Shown piece by piece: positions 6,987-48,965 of a stretch of DNA of 64,000 bases. Location: assembly GCA_038870635.1 (NCBI GenBank), contig JAVZJR010000002.1, positions 66,792-130,791 on the forward strand, given 5' to 3'. Numbering within the stretch: the stretch's first letter is position 1; each line of letters begins with the position of its first letter. This DNA comes from Candidatus Bilamarchaeaceae archaeon. Lineage in GTDB: Archaea > Micrarchaeota > Micrarchaeia > Anstonellales > Bilamarchaeaceae. The notes under the pieces are model-generated. The model saw nothing but the letters and a program-made list of their open reading frames with translations. It searched no databases and had not been told where the DNA came from. Both the position numbers and the translations under genes were made by a program.

Positions 6987-8636
6987 ATGAAAAATGTGTT
7001 TTTGTTCTTATTACTTCTTATGGGGCAACTTTTTGCAGCAGTGATTGTTAATTCGCTTGATGGCCGTGATGTAATCTCTGCTACCTACTACGCTGCATTA
7101 ATTGGCGAAAAAATAGTGATTGCTTACCCAGATTCTGATTTACAAAATATTTTTTCTTCTGTAGGAGTTAATGAGAATGTTTTTTTAGTACAATCAGAGA
7201 AAAATCCTGTTTTTGTAGGTCTTGCGGATTCTCTCAAACAGAGAGAAAATAAAGTAACACTTTTTGTTTCTAAAGATCCATTTGAAACAAATCTAGAGCT
7301 TGCAAAGAAGAGTGGTGTTAAAAGATTAATCTTAATTGATCCGATATATGGGTATAACACAGTTTCAACCCTTGCATATGGAAAACAAAATAAGATGTTC
7401 TTGATATTTGTGAGTAAAGAGAATTTAGACAAAGCAACCGAAACAATTAATAGCATTAAACCAAACGAGGTTTTGATTTACGGATATGTCGATAAAGAAA
7501 TCAAGGACGCGCTCTCCAAAAATGCAATCGCATACAAAGAAATAAATAATGGCGATAAATTCGACGATAATATGGAAATTCTTAATTTATACTTTAGCAA
7601 AAATCCATCTAAAAAGCAAGTTATACTTGCAGATGGAAATGGTATAGAAGATACGATTGCAGGTGGCGATGACCCGGTTTTGTTTATTGGTCAAATAGTG
7701 CCTATAAGTGTTTACAATTATTTGAAAGAAAAGGTTGCAAAAGATCAAATAACTGTCGGTTTAGTTGTTGATAAAGATTATTTCCAAACCTCTTATAATC
7801 TTAAACAATCTATAAACCAAGATTTAGGCCAAAAGAAATTTACTGTTTTAGCAAAAATCGGTCAAAGCGCAGGTGGTCAGCAAGGTTCTCCTGCAGCTGT
7901 ACCGCTATTCCCTCTTCGTGGTCCTATAAGTGGTTTAAGTATAGAGAAGGTTGAATATAACACTGCGAAGAAAGCGATTGAAGTTATTTACAAAAACACC
8001 GGCAACGCACAGGAGTATGTAAAATCAACTATTGCAATTTACGTGAATGGTAACAAAGTATCGGTTGTTGGTGATGAAGAACCTTTTATTTTAGATAAAG
8101 GAGCTATTTTTGGTCGTGTTTATCCAATTGATATAGAAGAAGGTGGCATATCAGTAAATATTACTTCGTTTTTCGGTATATCCAAGAAGAACCTTGACAA
8201 TGGTATCATTGGTTATTTTGATGTTGGGAAAGTAGATTATGTAGACAACTCTCAGATAGAGATTACTTCAATAAATGTGGACAAATCGAGCGGAGATATC
8301 GTCGTAGTGTTTACAAATATTGGAAATATCCCAGCTTATTTTAGAGCAGATGTTTTAACGCAGATAAATAATCGCTCAACTAAAATAGAGGACAATGTTG
8401 TATACAGCTTAAAACCAAACGAGGGGAGGGCAGTTAAATTTATAGGAATTGGAAAAGATAGCAACAAGATAATTGCAGGCGCCAATTATGGTTCGCGCGA
8501 AGCTTTTCTTAACAAAAGAGTGGAGAAAGAATATGTAGAAAGTAGCACTGCCTTTAATGAAACTTTGCTTATTGGCTTAGTAATTCTCTTGATCATCATA
8601 GTCGCTGTTTATTTCTTGGTTGGGAAGAAGAAATAG
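6987..8636 (+). CDS. Secreted surface protein with C-terminal transmembrane anchor
   Basis: 549-aa ORF with signal-like MKNVFLFLLLLMGQLFA. The C-terminal tail is LLIGLVILLIIIVAVYFLVGKKK. The middle part resembles CARDB-like beta-sandwich repeats (weak, by eye). Confidence 0.65.
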   Translation: MKNVFLFLLLLMGQLFAAVIVNSLDGRDVISATYYAALIGEKIVIAYPDSDLQNIFSSVGVNENVFLVQSEKNPVFVGLADSLKQRENKVTLFVSKDPFETNLELAKKSGVKRLILIDPIYGYNTVSTLAYGKQNKMFLIFVSKENLDKATETINSIKPNEVLIYGYVDKEIKDALSKNAIAYKEINNGDKFDDNMEILNLYFSKNPSKKQVILADGNGIEDTIAGGDDPVLFIGQIVPISVYNYLKEKVAKDQITVGLVVDKDYFQTSYNLKQSINQDLGQKKFTVLAKIGQSAGGQQGSPAAVPLFPLRGPISGLSIEKVEYNTAKKAIEVIYKNTGNAQEYVKSTIAIYVNGNKVSVVGDEEPFILDKGAIFGRVYPIDIEEGGISVNITSFFGISKKNLDNGIIGYFDVGKVDYVDNSQIEITSINVDKSSGDIVVVFTNIGNIPAYFRADVLTQINNRSTKIEDNVVYSLKPNEGRAVKFIGIGKDSNKIIAGANYGSREAFLNKRVEKEYVESSTAFNETLLIGLVILLIIIVAVYFLVGKKK

Positions 8637-10683
8637 ATTTTTTATTTTCTTTATTTTTATTTCTGCTTTCTTTTAGAATTAGAATCACCAAGCTAAAGAT
8701 AAACTGTAAGATTGCGATATTCGACATTACGCAAATATTGAATACCCAGAAACTTGGTAGTGAAAGGATGATGGGTAAACTGTAATAGATTACACGTTTT
8801 AGTTTTCCCCATTCTAATCTCTTGCCTATAATAAATATTCCAAAAATAGCTAAGATTATAGTAATAACCCAAAGTACGTAATAACTTGGCGCTATCGCAA
8901 ACCAATTAAGCAACATAGGGAAATAGCACATCGCCTTTGCTTCTTCATTTATTTTTATACTTGTTTTTTTTATTATATAACCTGCTTTTGTCGCTATTAT
9001 TATTTTTTCACCAACAGTATCAGGTATATAGATGATCTCGCCGTTTTTATCTGTTTCATACTTTTTGCCATCTATGCTTACTACTGCGCCTTCTATTGGT
9101 TTTCCTTTCGTATCGACTAACTTTATTATGACTCTTTCCCCTATCCATGCTTCTTTTGCCGCGTCTATTCTTCCTAATCTTATAACTGGTAACATTACTC
9201 CACTTTGCGGGTATCCTTCTTTTGATGCTATTATCATTCCATCATATGGTGTTTTTATTCTAGTGAAACCATTTTCGTCGGCAATTGTTTGCATCTCTGA
9301 AGTGAATACATTAGCGTATGGTATAAATTCACCTTTATTATTTATGATTTGAATAAGCAGCTCATTTCCTTCTATTGTTTCGCCTTCAATCAACTTTATT
9401 TGGAGCTCTTTTTGTACACATTTGTTGGATACGCAGTTTTTATTTGATGGGCAATCACTATCCTTGCAACATTCATAAGTGTTGCAGCGATGGTTTTGGA
9501 TATATCCACATTCGCAGATTATTTTTTTACATTGAGCCATTTCGCAAACTTCGTTTTCTGCGCAATCGCTATCTTTTTTGCATAAAACACATTCTTCATT
9601 TTCGCATAAACCACTTTTACACTCCTCCCTTCTTTTACATTTTTCCTTAAAATCTTTTTTTGGCTTACAAAGTCCTTCTTCACAGTAAGAAAACTGGTTG
9701 CATTCTTCATCTTTAATGCATTCTGGTACTATTGTTATCTTAAATTCGTTATAACTTGACGCCACTGCATTTTTTGCATGTACTACCAATACGTATGTAC
9801 CAACTTTATGACCAATTAAAGTAAGATTGACATTTTCTGGTTGCCCTTTATAGAGTTTTGTTATTTTATAAGAAGTGCAATCAAAATAAGAAATACAATC
9901 AAGATAAACATCTACATCATTTTCAATGTAGTAGTCGCCGCTATTCTTTACTGTTACCGGTATCTTTATTTTTTGTCCTATAATCGCCGTAAAGTCAGGT
10001 AATGGTTCTATTTCTATTTTGTGCTTTTTGCCTTCTGTTGGTTTTGTGCCAGGTTGCTGGCAGGTGTAATTTACATCAGCTCGGATAGTGTAATTCATAG
10101 CCGCAGTACCTTTTGGTAGCATTATTTGATAATCATTAAGAGAACCGTTCCATCCTGGTTTATCATTTACTACCTCCGCCACGAAAACAATATTATTATT
10201 GGCGTCATTTAGGTATCCTATTCTGAAATTATCAGAAGAGGTATTATTTACATAGGTGTAGGTAGTTGGAACATTATTATAAGTGCCATAAGTGAGAGTG
10301 AAATTGGTTATGTTTTTGAATGTGTTTGTTCCGTTTTCTGTGCCCGAAATCAATGAATCAAGAATAGACAAATTACCTGCCTTGAGTGGTAAGAAAATAT
10401 TGCTTGAATTCACAGCAATTATATGTATTTTAATCGTATTGTAAATGCACGGCGGGTTTTGAGCGATTATATTTATTTCAGTTATGTTGTTTCCAGTTAC
10501 AGTATGATTGTATACCACTCCATTTCCTAGTAAGACATTTCCGTATACTCCATCCCAATAGGTAGAGTTAGAAAAGATAGTAAATGTTGTTTGAGTTGTG
10601 TTTCCGCCATCTATATTTAATTGAGAATAAACTAGTGAAATCATTAAAAGAAGCAGTAAGTTGGTTTTGATATTATTCATCAT
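8596..10683 (-). CDS. Multidomain surface protein: W-G-x-Y-G domain, CARDB-like domain, Cys-rich modules, CarboxypepD_reg-like domains, polytopic C-terminal membrane region
   Basis: The ORF-track start at 10719 is probably too long. ATG ATG at 10683/10680 precedes the signal-like NNIKTNLLLLLMISLVYSQ. Cys-rich block at aa 333-436. The motif VDTKGKPIEGAVVSIDGKKYETDKNGEI looks CarboxypepD_reg-like. Three hydrophobic segments lie at the C-terminus. Confidence 0.7.
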   Translation of the reverse strand: MMNNIKTNLLLLLMISLVYSQLNIDGGNTTQTTFTIFSNSTYWDGVYGNVLLGNGVVYNHTVTGNNITEINIIAQNPPCIYNTIKIHIIAVNSSNIFLPLKAGNLSILDSLISGTENGTNTFKNITNFTLTYGTYNNVPTTYTYVNNTSSDNFRIGYLNDANNNIVFVAEVVNDKPGWNGSLNDYQIMLPKGTAAMNYTIRADVNYTCQQPGTKPTEGKKHKIEIEPLPDFTAIIGQKIKIPVTVKNSGDYYIENDVDVYLDCISYFDCTSYKITKLYKGQPENVNLTLIGHKVGTYVLVVHAKNAVASSYNEFKITIVPECIKDEECNQFSYCEEGLCKPKKDFKEKCKRREECKSGLCENEECVLCKKDSDCAENEVCEMAQCKKIICECGYIQNHRCNTYECCKDSDCPSNKNCVSNKCVQKELQIKLIEGETIEGNELLIQIINNKGEFIPYANVFTSEMQTIADENGFTRIKTPYDGMIIASKEGYPQSGVMLPVIRLGRIDAAKEAWIGERVIIKLVDTKGKPIEGAVVSIDGKKYETDKNGEIIYIPDTVGEKIIIATKAGYIIKKTSIKINEEAKAMCYFPMLLNWFAIAPSYYVLWVITIILAIFGIFIIGKRLEWGKLKRVIYYSLPIILSLPSFWVFNICVMSNIAILQFIFSLVILILKESRNKNKENKKSISSSQPRNKQRL

Positions 10684-10733
10684 TTTTTTATCTGCCTTAT
10701 ATTTATTAATATTTCGCAATCCTAATCCTCTGG

Positions 10734-10797
10734 ATGATGACCAAGGTGATCGCTGAGAGCCATCTCATGGTTCGGTGATGATTGACGTGCGGTCTGA
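10734..10797 (+). ncRNA. C/D-box sRNA (2'-O-methylation guide), candidate 1
   Basis: C box ATGATGA 10734-10740. 12-nt guide CCAAGGTGATCG 10741-10752. D' box CTGA 10753-10756. 18-nt spacer with small hairpin (AGCCAT/ATGGTT). C' box GTGATGA 10775-10781. 12-nt guide TTGACGTGCGGT 10782-10793. D box CTGA 10794-10797. It sits in a GC-richer intergenic patch, with a TATA-like ATTTATTAAT at 10701-10710 about 25 nt upstream. Confidence 0.75.
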
Positions 10798-10830: not shown

Positions 10831-13800
10831 CTATCTAGGCGGTTTAACAAATTTATTCCAAAGGATGAAAGATATAGCTAAAATACCGCCAACTATAACA
10901 ATCCATATTATTGCATCGAGATAGTTACTTTGTTTCAACTTTTCTTGAGTAGTTGGTAATGATGTCTCTTCCTTCTCTTTCGCTAAACTCTTTATAGTGA
11001 GTGTGGACCTTATGGGCCCATTATTTATTATATAAGAAATTTTATATTCTTCTTTTTCTACCACAAACTGGCCTTCACCGTTTTCTGATGTTTGTAAAAT
11101 TTTCCTTTCCCCTGAAGAACTTTCTAATAAAACATCTCGTTTAGCTAGCGGTCCTAAGTGGCAAATATGGTTTTCACAATAAGGCCCAACTAATGTAAAT
11201 TTATAAATGTTACCTATAAACTCCTTTTCTTTACCTACTATTTTATATTCTCCTTTACAGTCGCTATCCTCACAACATTCATAATCTTTCCAAGAGTGAT
11301 TGGCAATATAGCCGCATTTTCCTTTTTCTATTAACTTACATTTATTTGTTGTAAGGTCGCAATACATGCTTTCACTACATTGTGTGTTATCTATGCATTC
11401 CTTTTTTTCTTTACAGATATGCTCTTTCGCATCACAGTAAAAATTACTTTCAATACAATCACTGTCAGTGCAGCATTGGTATTGTATACATTTATGATCA
11501 ACTATTTCACCGCAGCTACATTCGATTAATTTGCAAACGCCTTTTGTCTTTTCATTTTCTATATAACAATATTCTTTTTCATTACATTCTTGATTACTCT
11601 TACACCCATGACAAGATGTGTAATTGAATTCTTCTTTTGCGGGACAATAATAGCCCCTTCCTTCAAATTCTAAATTATATAAAATTGTATCTAATGTAGA
11701 TGGTAGTTTGTATAATATTTCACCACTATCATTACTCTTAAGACGCTCAATGTTATACTTACCATGGCTTATTAATATATACTCATTATCTATTAGTTTA
11801 TTGTTTGTTTCATCAATAAGTTTTATAATTAATATATCATTTAAACAATCAATGGTATAATTTATTTTAACTTTTCGAGAGCAGTATTCACTTTTACTTT
11901 TACTACTTTCGATAAGTTGTTTACGGCCCAATATTGTTAGGATACTTTCGTTAGCGAAATTGTTTATAGTGATTGATTTTGCTGTAGTATTTATTGTTTG
12001 ATTAGAGGCTTTTTCTATCCAATCGGTTTCATTATTTAACCATACTTCAAGACTGGAAGGATTATAGCCGCTTACCTCACTAGGATTCCAACTAAAAGTA
12101 ATTGAATCGATAATTAATAAATAGGCCGGGTAGTATTTACCTATTCTTATACTCTTACCGAAAAGTGCATAACCAGTAGGAGGCGTTCCAGAAGGGTTTT
12201 CAGACCAATTTATAAAAAACGAATATTTCTTTTTTAATGTAGTGTTTAATGATATATTTGCATAATTGCGAAGAGATAATTTACCATCAGGTGCATCAAA
12301 AATAACATTTTGTAAAGTAAGTATTAAAGAACCCACATTGTTTTTAACTATAAAGTCATAGCTGTTATTGTAGTAGTGGTCTTTCTGAATAAATAATACA
12401 CTCCCGTCTTCTAAAGTAACTCCGCTTATTTTATTTTTATAGATGGTATTGCTAGCGAATAGCGTAGTCGTTTTACCTAAGATTAGTACACCGCTCTCTT
12501 CGTTACTGTGTATTGTATTTTGGATTAGTGTATTATTATCTGCAGGTTCGTCTATTTGGATACCAATTCCATCGTTATTATAGATAGTATTATTAGAAAT
12601 AGTATTATTAGAAGAGTAGCCACTTATAACGAGGCCGTAATAATTTTTATAGATAATATTTTTATCTAATGTATTGTTAGATGAAGTATATAAAGAAAAT
12701 GCTATATCTGCTATATTATAGATGCTGTTATTTGAGAAAAAGCTATTGTTTGTCGAGATAAGAACAAAGCCTTCCGTAGCATTATATACGCTGTTATTTG
12801 AAAAAAAGTTGTTACTAGATGACTCACTTATTACAGCCGTGTCACTGTTATCATATATTTCATTATCTAATATGGAATTATTATTTGAAGCAATTAAGAC
12901 AATACTTACTTCGTTACTATATATTATATTTTGGCTGACTGTCGTATTTGTAATCCCTATCATTTCTAGACCAACAGTGTTATTATTTAGAGAATTTGTT
13001 TGGATGGTATGATTGTTAGAGAATTTTAATAATATACCAAAATTGGAGCCGTAGATGTTATTTTCTTTTATTTCCGTGTCATTTGATGAGGTTATGTCTA
13101 TGGCAGTTTGCAGAGCGTCATATATCGTATTGCTCAAAATAATATTTTGGTTTGACTCCTCATTTAATTTAATACCATAAAATATATTGTCGTATATTTG
13201 ATTATGAGTTAATAAATTGTTAGAAGATTTATATAACTCAAAACATTTATTATTTCTATATATTTTGTTATTTGAAAAATTATTTTCATTAGCATTATCT
13301 AAGTAAATGCCCCAATAATTATCATATATTTCGTTGAGTGTTATGTTATTTTTTGATGAAAATGAAACATGAATTCCTCTGCTTGTATTGTATATTAAAT
13401 TTTCTGATAAAGTGTTAGTATGTGTTGACCCTCCCAAAAAGAAACCATCTCCGTTATAGTAAACAAAATTTTTTGAGAAAGTGTTGTTAAAACCTCCAAT
13501 TGCACCAAAACCATAAGTGTTATTATGGACAGTGTTGTTTGTTATAATGTTGTCTGAAGATGATATTAAATATATCCCGTAAGTCGTGTTATATACAGTT
13601 GTATTTAAAATTTGATTGTATTGCGAGTTTTCAATACGAATACCATATGTATAATTTAAAATAGCTGCACAATTCTTAATAGTAACATTTGAAACAGAAA
13701 GCAAAGAAATACCATGTGTTGGAGTAGCGCCGTCCCCATTATAAGTTATGGTTTTGCCATTACAATCTAAAGTTATTTGAGAAGCTGTTATTTTTATACA

Positions 13801-13977
13801 TGCTTTATCATTGTCTGGAAAACCTGGTAGTTCATTTGGTGCTCCTACAAGATTGGAAGTAAGTATATAAGTTTCACCTTCTTGAGTAAGGTTAGAACAG
13901 CTATCAACGAGTATGTCCGCGAAACTTACACTGATCATTAACCCAATAAATAAGATATATTTACTATAGCTTGTCAT
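10831..13977 (-). CDS. Secreted beta-helix (PbH1/NosD-like) surface protein with beta-sandwich, Cys-rich modules and C-terminal TM anchor
   Basis: 1048 aa. Signal-like MTSYSKYILFIGLMISVSFA. Cap motif CIKITASQITLDCNGKTITYNG. About 20 coils of type NNTIYNN. Cys-rich block at aa ~778-940. C-terminal tail AIIWIVIVGGILAISFILWNKFVKPPR. Confidence 0.8.
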   Translation of the reverse strand: MTSYSKYILFIGLMISVSFADILVDSCSNLTQEGETYILTSNLVGAPNELPGFPDNDKACIKITASQITLDCNGKTITYNGDGATPTHGISLLSVSNVTIKNCAAILNYTYGIRIENSQYNQILNTTVYNTTYGIYLISSSDNIITNNTVHNNTYGFGAIGGFNNTFSKNFVYYNGDGFFLGGSTHTNTLSENLIYNTSRGIHVSFSSKNNITLNEIYDNYWGIYLDNANENNFSNNKIYRNNKCFELYKSSNNLLTHNQIYDNIFYGIKLNEESNQNIILSNTIYDALQTAIDITSSNDTEIKENNIYGSNFGILLKFSNNHTIQTNSLNNNTVGLEMIGITNTTVSQNIIYSNEVSIVLIASNNNSILDNEIYDNSDTAVISESSSNNFFSNNSVYNATEGFVLISTNNSFFSNNSIYNIADIAFSLYTSSNNTLDKNIIYKNYYGLVISGYSSNNTISNNTIYNNDGIGIQIDEPADNNTLIQNTIHSNEESGVLILGKTTTLFASNTIYKNKISGVTLEDGSVLFIQKDHYYNNSYDFIVKNNVGSLILTLQNVIFDAPDGKLSLRNYANISLNTTLKKKYSFFINWSENPSGTPPTGYALFGKSIRIGKYYPAYLLIIDSITFSWNPSEVSGYNPSSLEVWLNNETDWIEKASNQTINTTAKSITINNFANESILTILGRKQLIESSKSKSEYCSRKVKINYTIDCLNDILIIKLIDETNNKLIDNEYILISHGKYNIERLKSNDSGEILYKLPSTLDTILYNLEFEGRGYYCPAKEEFNYTSCHGCKSNQECNEKEYCYIENEKTKGVCKLIECSCGEIVDHKCIQYQCCTDSDCIESNFYCDAKEHICKEKKECIDNTQCSESMYCDLTTNKCKLIEKGKCGYIANHSWKDYECCEDSDCKGEYKIVGKEKEFIGNIYKFTLVGPYCENHICHLGPLAKRDVLLESSSGERKILQTSENGEGQFVVEKEEYKISYIINNGPIRSTLTIKSLAKEKEETSLPTTQEKLKQSNYLDAIIWIVIVGGILAISFILWNKFVKPPR

Positions 13978-48907: not shown

Positions 48908-48965
48908 TCAGCACTCAAGATCTTCTTCATAGAGCAGAGCCCTCAGACTGTCGAACATTCATCAC
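48908..48965 (-). ncRNA. C/D-box sRNA (2'-O-methylation guide), candidate 2
   Basis: Minus strand reads as follows. C box GTGATGA (48965-48959). 12-nt guide ATGTTCGACAGT (48958-48947). D' box CTGA (48946-48943). 12-nt spacer. C' box ATGAAGA (48930-48924, degenerate). 12-nt guide AGATCTTGAGTG (48923-48912). D box CTGA (48911-48908). The 58-nt core sits in an intergenic gap. Confidence 0.75.

Follow-up and report, generated by a model that had tools for sequence, protein, structure and literature searches.

A box C/D sRNA gene of Micrarchaeota with candidate guides to 16S rRNA C1402 and C1533

A 64-base element on the forward strand at positions 10734-10797 is, in our judgement, almost certainly a genuine archaeal box C/D sRNA gene: it carries the four boxes in order with 12-nt guides, its host encodes the three RNP proteins, and boxes, guides and an upstream TATA signal are conserved across the family. 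We further consider it probable, from the complementarity of the two guides, that the RNA directs ribose methylation of 16S rRNA at C1402 and C1533. The element is an ordinary kind of gene, yet it belongs to an undescribed family with some unusual relatives, and the unusual features, an unpaired guide position and a C'/D' K-turn stem grown into a domain with a tetraloop-receptor motif, are found mostly in those relatives. Catalogues of box C/D sRNAs draw mostly on cultured thermophiles and on Nanoarchaeum, and no description of one from Micrarchaeota was found in the literature that we searched.

Direct reading of the sequence gave ATGATGA-12-CTGA-18-GTGATGA-12-CTGA, the box order and 12/18/12 spacing that an earlier, sequence-only reading of this DNA had proposed together with the assignment to the archaeal C/D class. 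Box C (AUGAUGA, DNA ATGATGA) occupies 10734-10740 and is followed by the D' guide CCAAGGTGATCG (RNA CCAAGGUGAUCG; 10741-10752), box D' (CUGA; 10753-10756), an 18-nt D'-C' spacer GAGCCATCTCATGGTTCG (10757-10774), box C' (GUGAUGA, DNA GTGATGA; 10775-10781), the D guide TTGACGTGCGGT (RNA UUGACGUGCGGU; 10782-10793) and box D (CUGA; 10794-10797), all on the + strand. With a GC content of 51.6% the element forms, as had been noticed before, a GC-richer patch between flanks of 27.6% and 31.6%; the window, by which we mean the whole 64,000-nucleotide stretch of DNA analysed, has 35.7%. Two minus-strand open reading frames, 8596-10719 (probable ATG at 10683) and 10831-13977, border the gap that contains the element. 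Its description as antisense to both neighbours stands for the orientation, which is opposite to theirs, but not for any overlap, as neither coding sequence is touched. The neighbouring genes encode a beta-helix/NosD-type protein in one case and, in the other, a Cys-rich protein that gave only weak domain hits, and the label "adhesin" given to them could not be confirmed. No neighbouring gene was common to more than 6 of 32 homolog loci and none was shared with the focal locus, so conserved synteny or an island-specific role was dropped. Since the genomic context of archaeal C/D sRNA genes is normally variable (PMC7994747), the location inside an island, previously held to be unusual, carries no special meaning.

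A TATA-like box had been placed ~25 nt upstream of the element, and an A/T run that may act as its promoter is indeed found there (TTATATTTATTAATATTT; 10697-10714, + strand, 20-37 nt upstream of box C). When 71 homologs were aligned on box C, their A+T fraction rose to 0.83-0.94 at -30 to -26 against a background of ~0.55, with the TATA box 25-31 nt upstream of box C; from the position of this peak, transcription would start a few nucleotides before box C. Terminal stems of at least three contiguous pairs can be formed in 34 of 70 homologs, against ~12 expected, and comprise 3-6 pairs whose sequence differs between loci; that of the focal element is weak, being limited to G:U, G:U and U-A. Seven relatives (L018, L020, L021, L028, L033, L045 and L123) have a hairpin directly upstream of box C in place of the TATA box, in which a repeat of box C plus CCAAGG (RTGATGACCAAGG...) is paired with ...TTTGGCCATCAY. 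This hairpin may be a partial inverted duplication of the 5' end of the sRNA, or a processing element.

To place the motif in its genomic background, both strands of the whole 859-kb genome were scanned with the strict pattern RTGATGA-N10-13-CTGA-N2-25-RTGATGA-N10-13-CTGA. Two occurrences were found, against none in 40 genome-sized first-order Markov random genomes and an analytic chance estimate of ~2e-4 per genome, and the four-box motif is therefore not a product of chance. The assembly (35% GC, 8 contigs) contains archaeal 16S and 23S rRNA genes and encodes fibrillarin (277 bits), Nop5 (207 bits) and L7Ae (99 bits), all above Pfam cut-offs and in open frames. A relaxed scan returned three additional C/D candidates, at C1:385378-385426 (+), C1:280157-280205 (-) and window positions 48908-48965 (-). 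Each of them can form 9-10 contiguous Watson-Crick pairs with 23S rRNA, which argues that the guide system is in use and that the scan method works; the focal genome carries only a handful of C/D guides. The candidate inside the window reads GTGATGA-ATGTTCGACAGT-CTGA-GGGCTCTGCTCT-ATGAAGA-AGATCTTGAGTG-CTGA; its D' guide makes 10 contiguous Watson-Crick pairs with 23S rRNA (LSU 858), a TTAAAATG motif lies ~30 nt upstream, and its 12-nt spacer can form a small hairpin. The two candidates outside the window have 3-nt spacers, and both guides of C1:280157-280205 (-) fall on 23S rRNA only 20 nt apart (LSU 1953 and 1973), with 9-10 contiguous pairs each.

No Rfam family, C/D families such as sR2, sR23 and sR3 included, matched the element at threshold, the best being sR2 with 20.2 bits against a gathering score of 42, and at gathering thresholds the whole window yielded nothing besides one tRNA. 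Across the genome, ARAGORN called 19 tRNAs, some with odd anticodons, and the Rfam tRNA model found 30; many of the latter measure 90-170 nt, a length suggesting that many of the tRNA genes contain introns.

Conservation was first assessed by BLAST of an 81-nt region, which matched 87 of 99 family genomes. Many matches cover a short stretch only, and the weaker of them may have arisen by chance. BLAST loci and a contig scan were then combined into a homolog set of 109 full-length copies, 72 of them unique; the BLAST-only set showed the same pattern, with 88-100% identity across the two halves. In the GTDB species set (185,579 species) the D half was found on 70 contigs, 68 of which came from Micrarchaeota-type MAGs. 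Nearly all of these contigs are labelled Candidatus Micrarchaeota, Bilamarchaeaceae or Anstonellales, which places the focal organism in this DPANN group. Of 76 sampled family genomes, 56 contain the exact 15-mer of D guide plus D box, as do a few genomes from sister families within the order; in the ~270 genomes drawn from the other orders of the class it turned up in just one. Two full-length homologs sit on MAGs labelled Pirellulales bacterium (L100, CAZAYB010000075.1) and Aenigmatarchaeota (L146, JAWCDI010000202.1), and these contigs are probably mis-binned Micrarchaeota. Seven genomes (G042, G044, G046, G047, G067, G092 and G009) hold 2-3 copies of the D half, in some cases 1-3 kb apart on one contig; in G009 the second copy, L157, is a complete paralog whose guide position 6 is A.

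Within the 72 unique homologs, box C is RUGAUGA in 71 and box D is CUGA in all, box D having been part of the search pattern. Box D' is CUGA in 39, CCGA in 26 and CAGA in 4, and box C' is mostly AUGACGA or AUGAAGA (AUGAMGA). The D guide measures 12 nt in 72/72 and the D' guide 12 nt in 70/72 and, as read by the extraction pattern, 13 nt in the remaining 2; the invariance of the guides is in part a matter of ascertainment because the collecting patterns demanded most of these bases. A fortuitous grouping of short motifs, or a relic that is dead and not expressed, would agree with the fold energy of the element, which is no better than that of shuffled sequences (z = -0.28). This value is uninformative; C/D sRNAs usually show no fold-energy excess over shuffles. 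Set against the empty random genomes, the conservation of boxes, guides and promoter across the family and the compensatory changes in the spacer hairpin, such an explanation is scarcely credible.

We next turned to the targets of the two guides, for which the sequence-only reading had given the correct reverse complements and had proposed a search of rRNAs and tRNAs. In the focal 16S rRNA, ACCGCCCGUCAA at position 1442 is matched by the D guide with Watson-Crick pairs at 11 of 12 positions. This site corresponds to E. coli 1398-1409 when the numbering is set by the universal GYACACACCGCCCGU block (1392-1406), and the nucleotide facing position 5 from box D (N+5) is C1402. Only 16 of 2000 shuffled guides reached 11 matches anywhere in 16S plus 23S rRNA (p ~0.008). 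A perfect 12-mer target was found nowhere in the genome except on the antisense strand of the element gene itself; near matches occurred genome-wide at chance level, none of them in a tRNA, and no tRNA target scored well. The best results of the proposed search are thus this 11/12 match and, for the D' guide, 8 contiguous pairs at 16S 1530-1537. Read strictly as an uninterrupted run, the complement of at least 9 nt that had been named as a threshold is not reached, and the lack of conservation that had been coupled to it as a ground for doubt is clearly contradicted by the homologs. Neither 16S site varies among 18 family genomes.

The sole mismatch of the D guide is at position 6, where U faces C1403, the nucleotide adjoining the one to be methylated. 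Guide positions 1-11 (UGACGUGCGGU) are essentially invariant in the homologs, again partly through ascertainment, and position 6 is U, rarely A and never G; A is found in two true homologs, L157 from the same family and L158 from a sister family. A G6 version with perfect complementarity to 16S rRNA was sought in sister lineages and rejected, as a pattern with A, C or G at position 6 matched 7 of 401 genomes, about as many as its reversed control, and the lone G6 match among these genomes (L159) has no boxes upstream. Since G is found at position 6 in no homolog, this position looks deliberately unpaired. Our guess is that the gap weakens a very GC-rich duplex and so favours release. In vitro work on Sulfolobus C/D RNPs has reportedly shown that mismatches beside the target can lower activity, a point against the methylation reading.

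The conserved mismatch speaks against simple optimisation for 16S rRNA and lends some weight to a second explanation, in which a genuine C/D sRNA has other or additional targets, such as 23S ACCGUACGU (LSU 1058, with U at N+5) for the D guide or a non-rRNA substrate for one or both guides, or acts as a pairing chaperone that, owing to the neighbouring mismatch, does not methylate C1402. The 23S site (ACCGUACGUUGG) can form 12/12 pairs with the D guide once four G:U pairs are admitted. Conservation of its first 9 nt extends over 43 family genomes, two of which have the perfect ACCGCACGU, and with A opposite guide position 6 the site would account for the U there. Against this, in 4.5 kb of rRNA we would expect, from pairing probabilities, roughly one chance match over 9 nt when G:U counts as a pair, and the pairing puts a G:U wobble at the methylation position. 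Moreover, the 23S positions facing guide nucleotides 10-11 vary freely, whereas these guide nucleotides are invariant and pair with 16S C1407 and A1408, and the A6 homologs L157 and L158 would break the 23S pairing as well. The 23S site was set aside as a target on these grounds, and no tRNA came forward in its place; this whole class of explanation, the main rival to our reading, deserves consideration, although we think it somewhat unlikely. Methylation of C1402 under the D guide remains the preferred reading.

The D' guide pairs through its positions 2-9 with GAUCACCU in the 3' tail of 16S rRNA (...GCGGAUAGAUCACCUCCA), giving 8 contiguous pairs at 1530-1537 (numbering of PMC5389701) and placing C1533 at N+5. 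An 8-bp run was also obtained with 339 of 2000 shuffled guides (p ~0.17), so this match taken alone is not significant. The pattern of conservation nevertheless follows the pairing: GGUGAUC at positions 2-8 is unchanged in 69-70 of 70 homologs and A stands at position 9 in 55 of 70, positions 1, 11 and 12 vary, and the conserved core (positions 2-9) coincides exactly with the paired part. Against the match, position 10 is a conserved A that faces C1538. GAUCACC occurs once in the focal rRNAs, and the D' and D target sites lie ~130 nt apart in the same 16S domain. In the focal genome AAGGUGAUC serves as a ribosome-binding motif upstream of start codons, and pairing with the 16S tail is therefore physiological. 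As a separate observation, AAGGTGATC followed by ATG within a few nucleotides recurs, for instance at C3:34782, C1:385150 and C3:25796, which suggests that the Shine-Dalgarno motif of this genome is centred on GGUGAUC and identical to the core of the D' guide.

The identity of AAGGUGAUC with the ribosome-binding motif could equally be expected of a Shine-Dalgarno mimic that titrates 30S subunits, and the opposite orientation of the element to both neighbours could be expected of an antisense RNA that regulates the flanking surface-protein genes. Elsewhere in the genome, several copies of GATCACCTT represent AAGGTGATC read from the opposite strand and placed directly before an ATG, C3:34782 being one of them. 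A regulatory RNA of either kind is very improbable in our view, as the four-box architecture with 12-nt guides is kept in 72 homologs whatever their neighbours, and the element overlaps neither adjoining coding sequence. A Shine-Dalgarno motif with its own small ORF was also considered and dropped, since no conserved ORF follows the motif and the focal copy offers only ATG-GTT-CGG-TGA, 16 nt downstream.

The small hairpin previously noticed in the D'-C' spacer was reproduced: the spacer folds into a 7-bp stem, GAGCCAU/AUGGUUC, with the 3-nt loop CUC, followed by one unpaired G. This G joins the R and U of box C' in a three-nucleotide bulge, and the C'/D' motif is therefore predicted to be a full K-turn rather than a K-loop. 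Among the 72 homologs the spacer measures 3 nt in 2, forms a plain hairpin of 9-32 nt in 14, including the focal element, and contains a larger domain of 33-46, 74-87 or 108-139 nt in 56. The stems of the plain hairpins have unrelated sequences in the focal element and the 13 others, with compensatory changes. For the 74-87 nt class, the RNAalifold consensus comprises helices with many compensatory changes (one helix appears as GCC/GGC, UCC/GGA, GCU/AGC and ACU/AGU), a hairpin whose GUCA loop is conserved, and a second, short hairpin capped in most cases by a GNRA loop. An internal loop of CCUAAG opposite CACGG, between two covarying helices, is present in 53 of the 56 long spacers (53/72 homologs). 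Examples of relatives with long spacers are L012 1506-1627, L015 300-423 and L037 301-381. The long domain had no match in Rfam at E values up to 1, and the focal copy carries the plain hairpin only, with no expanded domain.

Taken together, we propose that this Micrarchaeota (DPANN) archaeon would transcribe the element independently as an RNA of ~65-70 nt. L7Ae would bind both K-turns, C/D and C'/D', the latter receiving its canonical stem from the spacer hairpin, and Nop5 and fibrillarin would then be recruited. The D guide would pair with 16S 1398-1409, the decoding-centre strand that tops helix 44, placing C1402 at N+5 for 2'-O-methylation, and the D' guide would pair with the 3' tail at 1530-1537, in the anti-Shine-Dalgarno region, with C1533 at N+5. 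With helices 44 and 45 lying between its two sites, the RNP could in addition keep the 3' minor domain in place while the 30S subunit is assembled. A bolder version of this idea makes the particle a Micrarchaeota-specific assembly RNP that clamps the C1402 strand and the C1533 tail of nascent 16S rRNA, with position 6 unpaired on purpose, a C'/D' stem expanded in most genera and a stripped-down focal copy. In such an RNP the CCUAAG/CACGG receptor and the GNRA hairpin could dock in cis, across the sRNA pair of a dimeric RNP, or with the GGAA loop of helix 45. We regard this version as unlikely, and keep to the simpler reading of a methylation guide.

On that reading, the element family provides a candidate guide for Cm1402 and Cm1533 of archaeal 16S rRNA, known archaeal modifications for which no guide is assigned in some of the species where they have been mapped (PMC5389701). 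It also offers a natural series of one guide RNA with internal spacers of 3-139 nt, which could serve to test how much extra RNA a C/D RNP tolerates at the C'/D' K-turn and whether it exploits tertiary-contact motifs at this point. Genome annotation gains a small set of RNA genes of a kind that is overlooked in these genomes.

In comparison with archaeal box C/D sRNAs at large, the element shares the box order C, D', C', D, the 12-nt guides, the predicted N+5 geometry, the intergenic position with a TATA box of its own, the presence of genes for L7Ae, Nop5 and fibrillarin, and a double guide whose predicted targets are two nearby sites in one rRNA domain. It differs in its 18-nt hairpin spacer and internal K-turn, where a K-loop of 3-9 nt is usual, in the conserved mismatch beside one target nucleotide and in having no Rfam family above threshold. 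To our knowledge, no tetraloop receptor is known inside a C/D sRNA. A likeness to the 11-nt GNRA tetraloop receptor (CCUAAG/UAUGG) is found in the long-spacer relatives only, as CCUAAG/CACGG, usually with a GNRA-capped hairpin in the same domain. PMC11381326 lists CCUAAG_CACGG among 98 measured receptor variants and tabulates its dG as -9.71 kcal/mol; for the set, the main text gives values from -11.77 to -8.35 kcal/mol. This variant binds GAAA more weakly than the canonical 11-nt receptor.

A counterpart from another DPANN archaeon is sR13 of Nanoarchaeum equitans, a C/D sRNA that pairs with 16S 1405-1415 and 1531-1540, spanning helices 44 and 45 (PMC5389701). Both RNAs direct one guide to the top of helix 44 and the other to the 3' tail, at 1398-1409 and 1530-1537 in the focal case, a likeness in the paired sites. 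The predicted methylation sites of sR13 are A1408 and A1534, whereas those of the focal element are C1402 and C1533, and the order of the guides is swapped, as helix 44 is paired by the 5'-region guide of sR13 and by the D guide here. Neither Cm1402 in N. equitans nor Cm1533 in Ignicoccus hospitalis has a known guide, and sR13 has been proposed to hold the 3' minor domain and to replace the checkpoint of RsmA/Dim1, which is absent in N. equitans (PMC5389701). The focal genome encodes an RsmA/Dim1 homolog (RrnaAD, 169 bits, at C1:294597-295211); replacement of this checkpoint is therefore not implied, and the idea was dropped. For the position equivalent to Cm1402, the guides are snR70 in yeast (18S Cm1639) and U43 in human (Cm1703). 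These RNAs and Iho sR11, which has been proposed as a Cm1402 guide (PMC5389701), have at N+5 the same universally conserved decoding-centre cytidine as is predicted for the focal family, again a comparison of sites, and the focal family differs from them in a guide position 6 that is never complementary to C1403.
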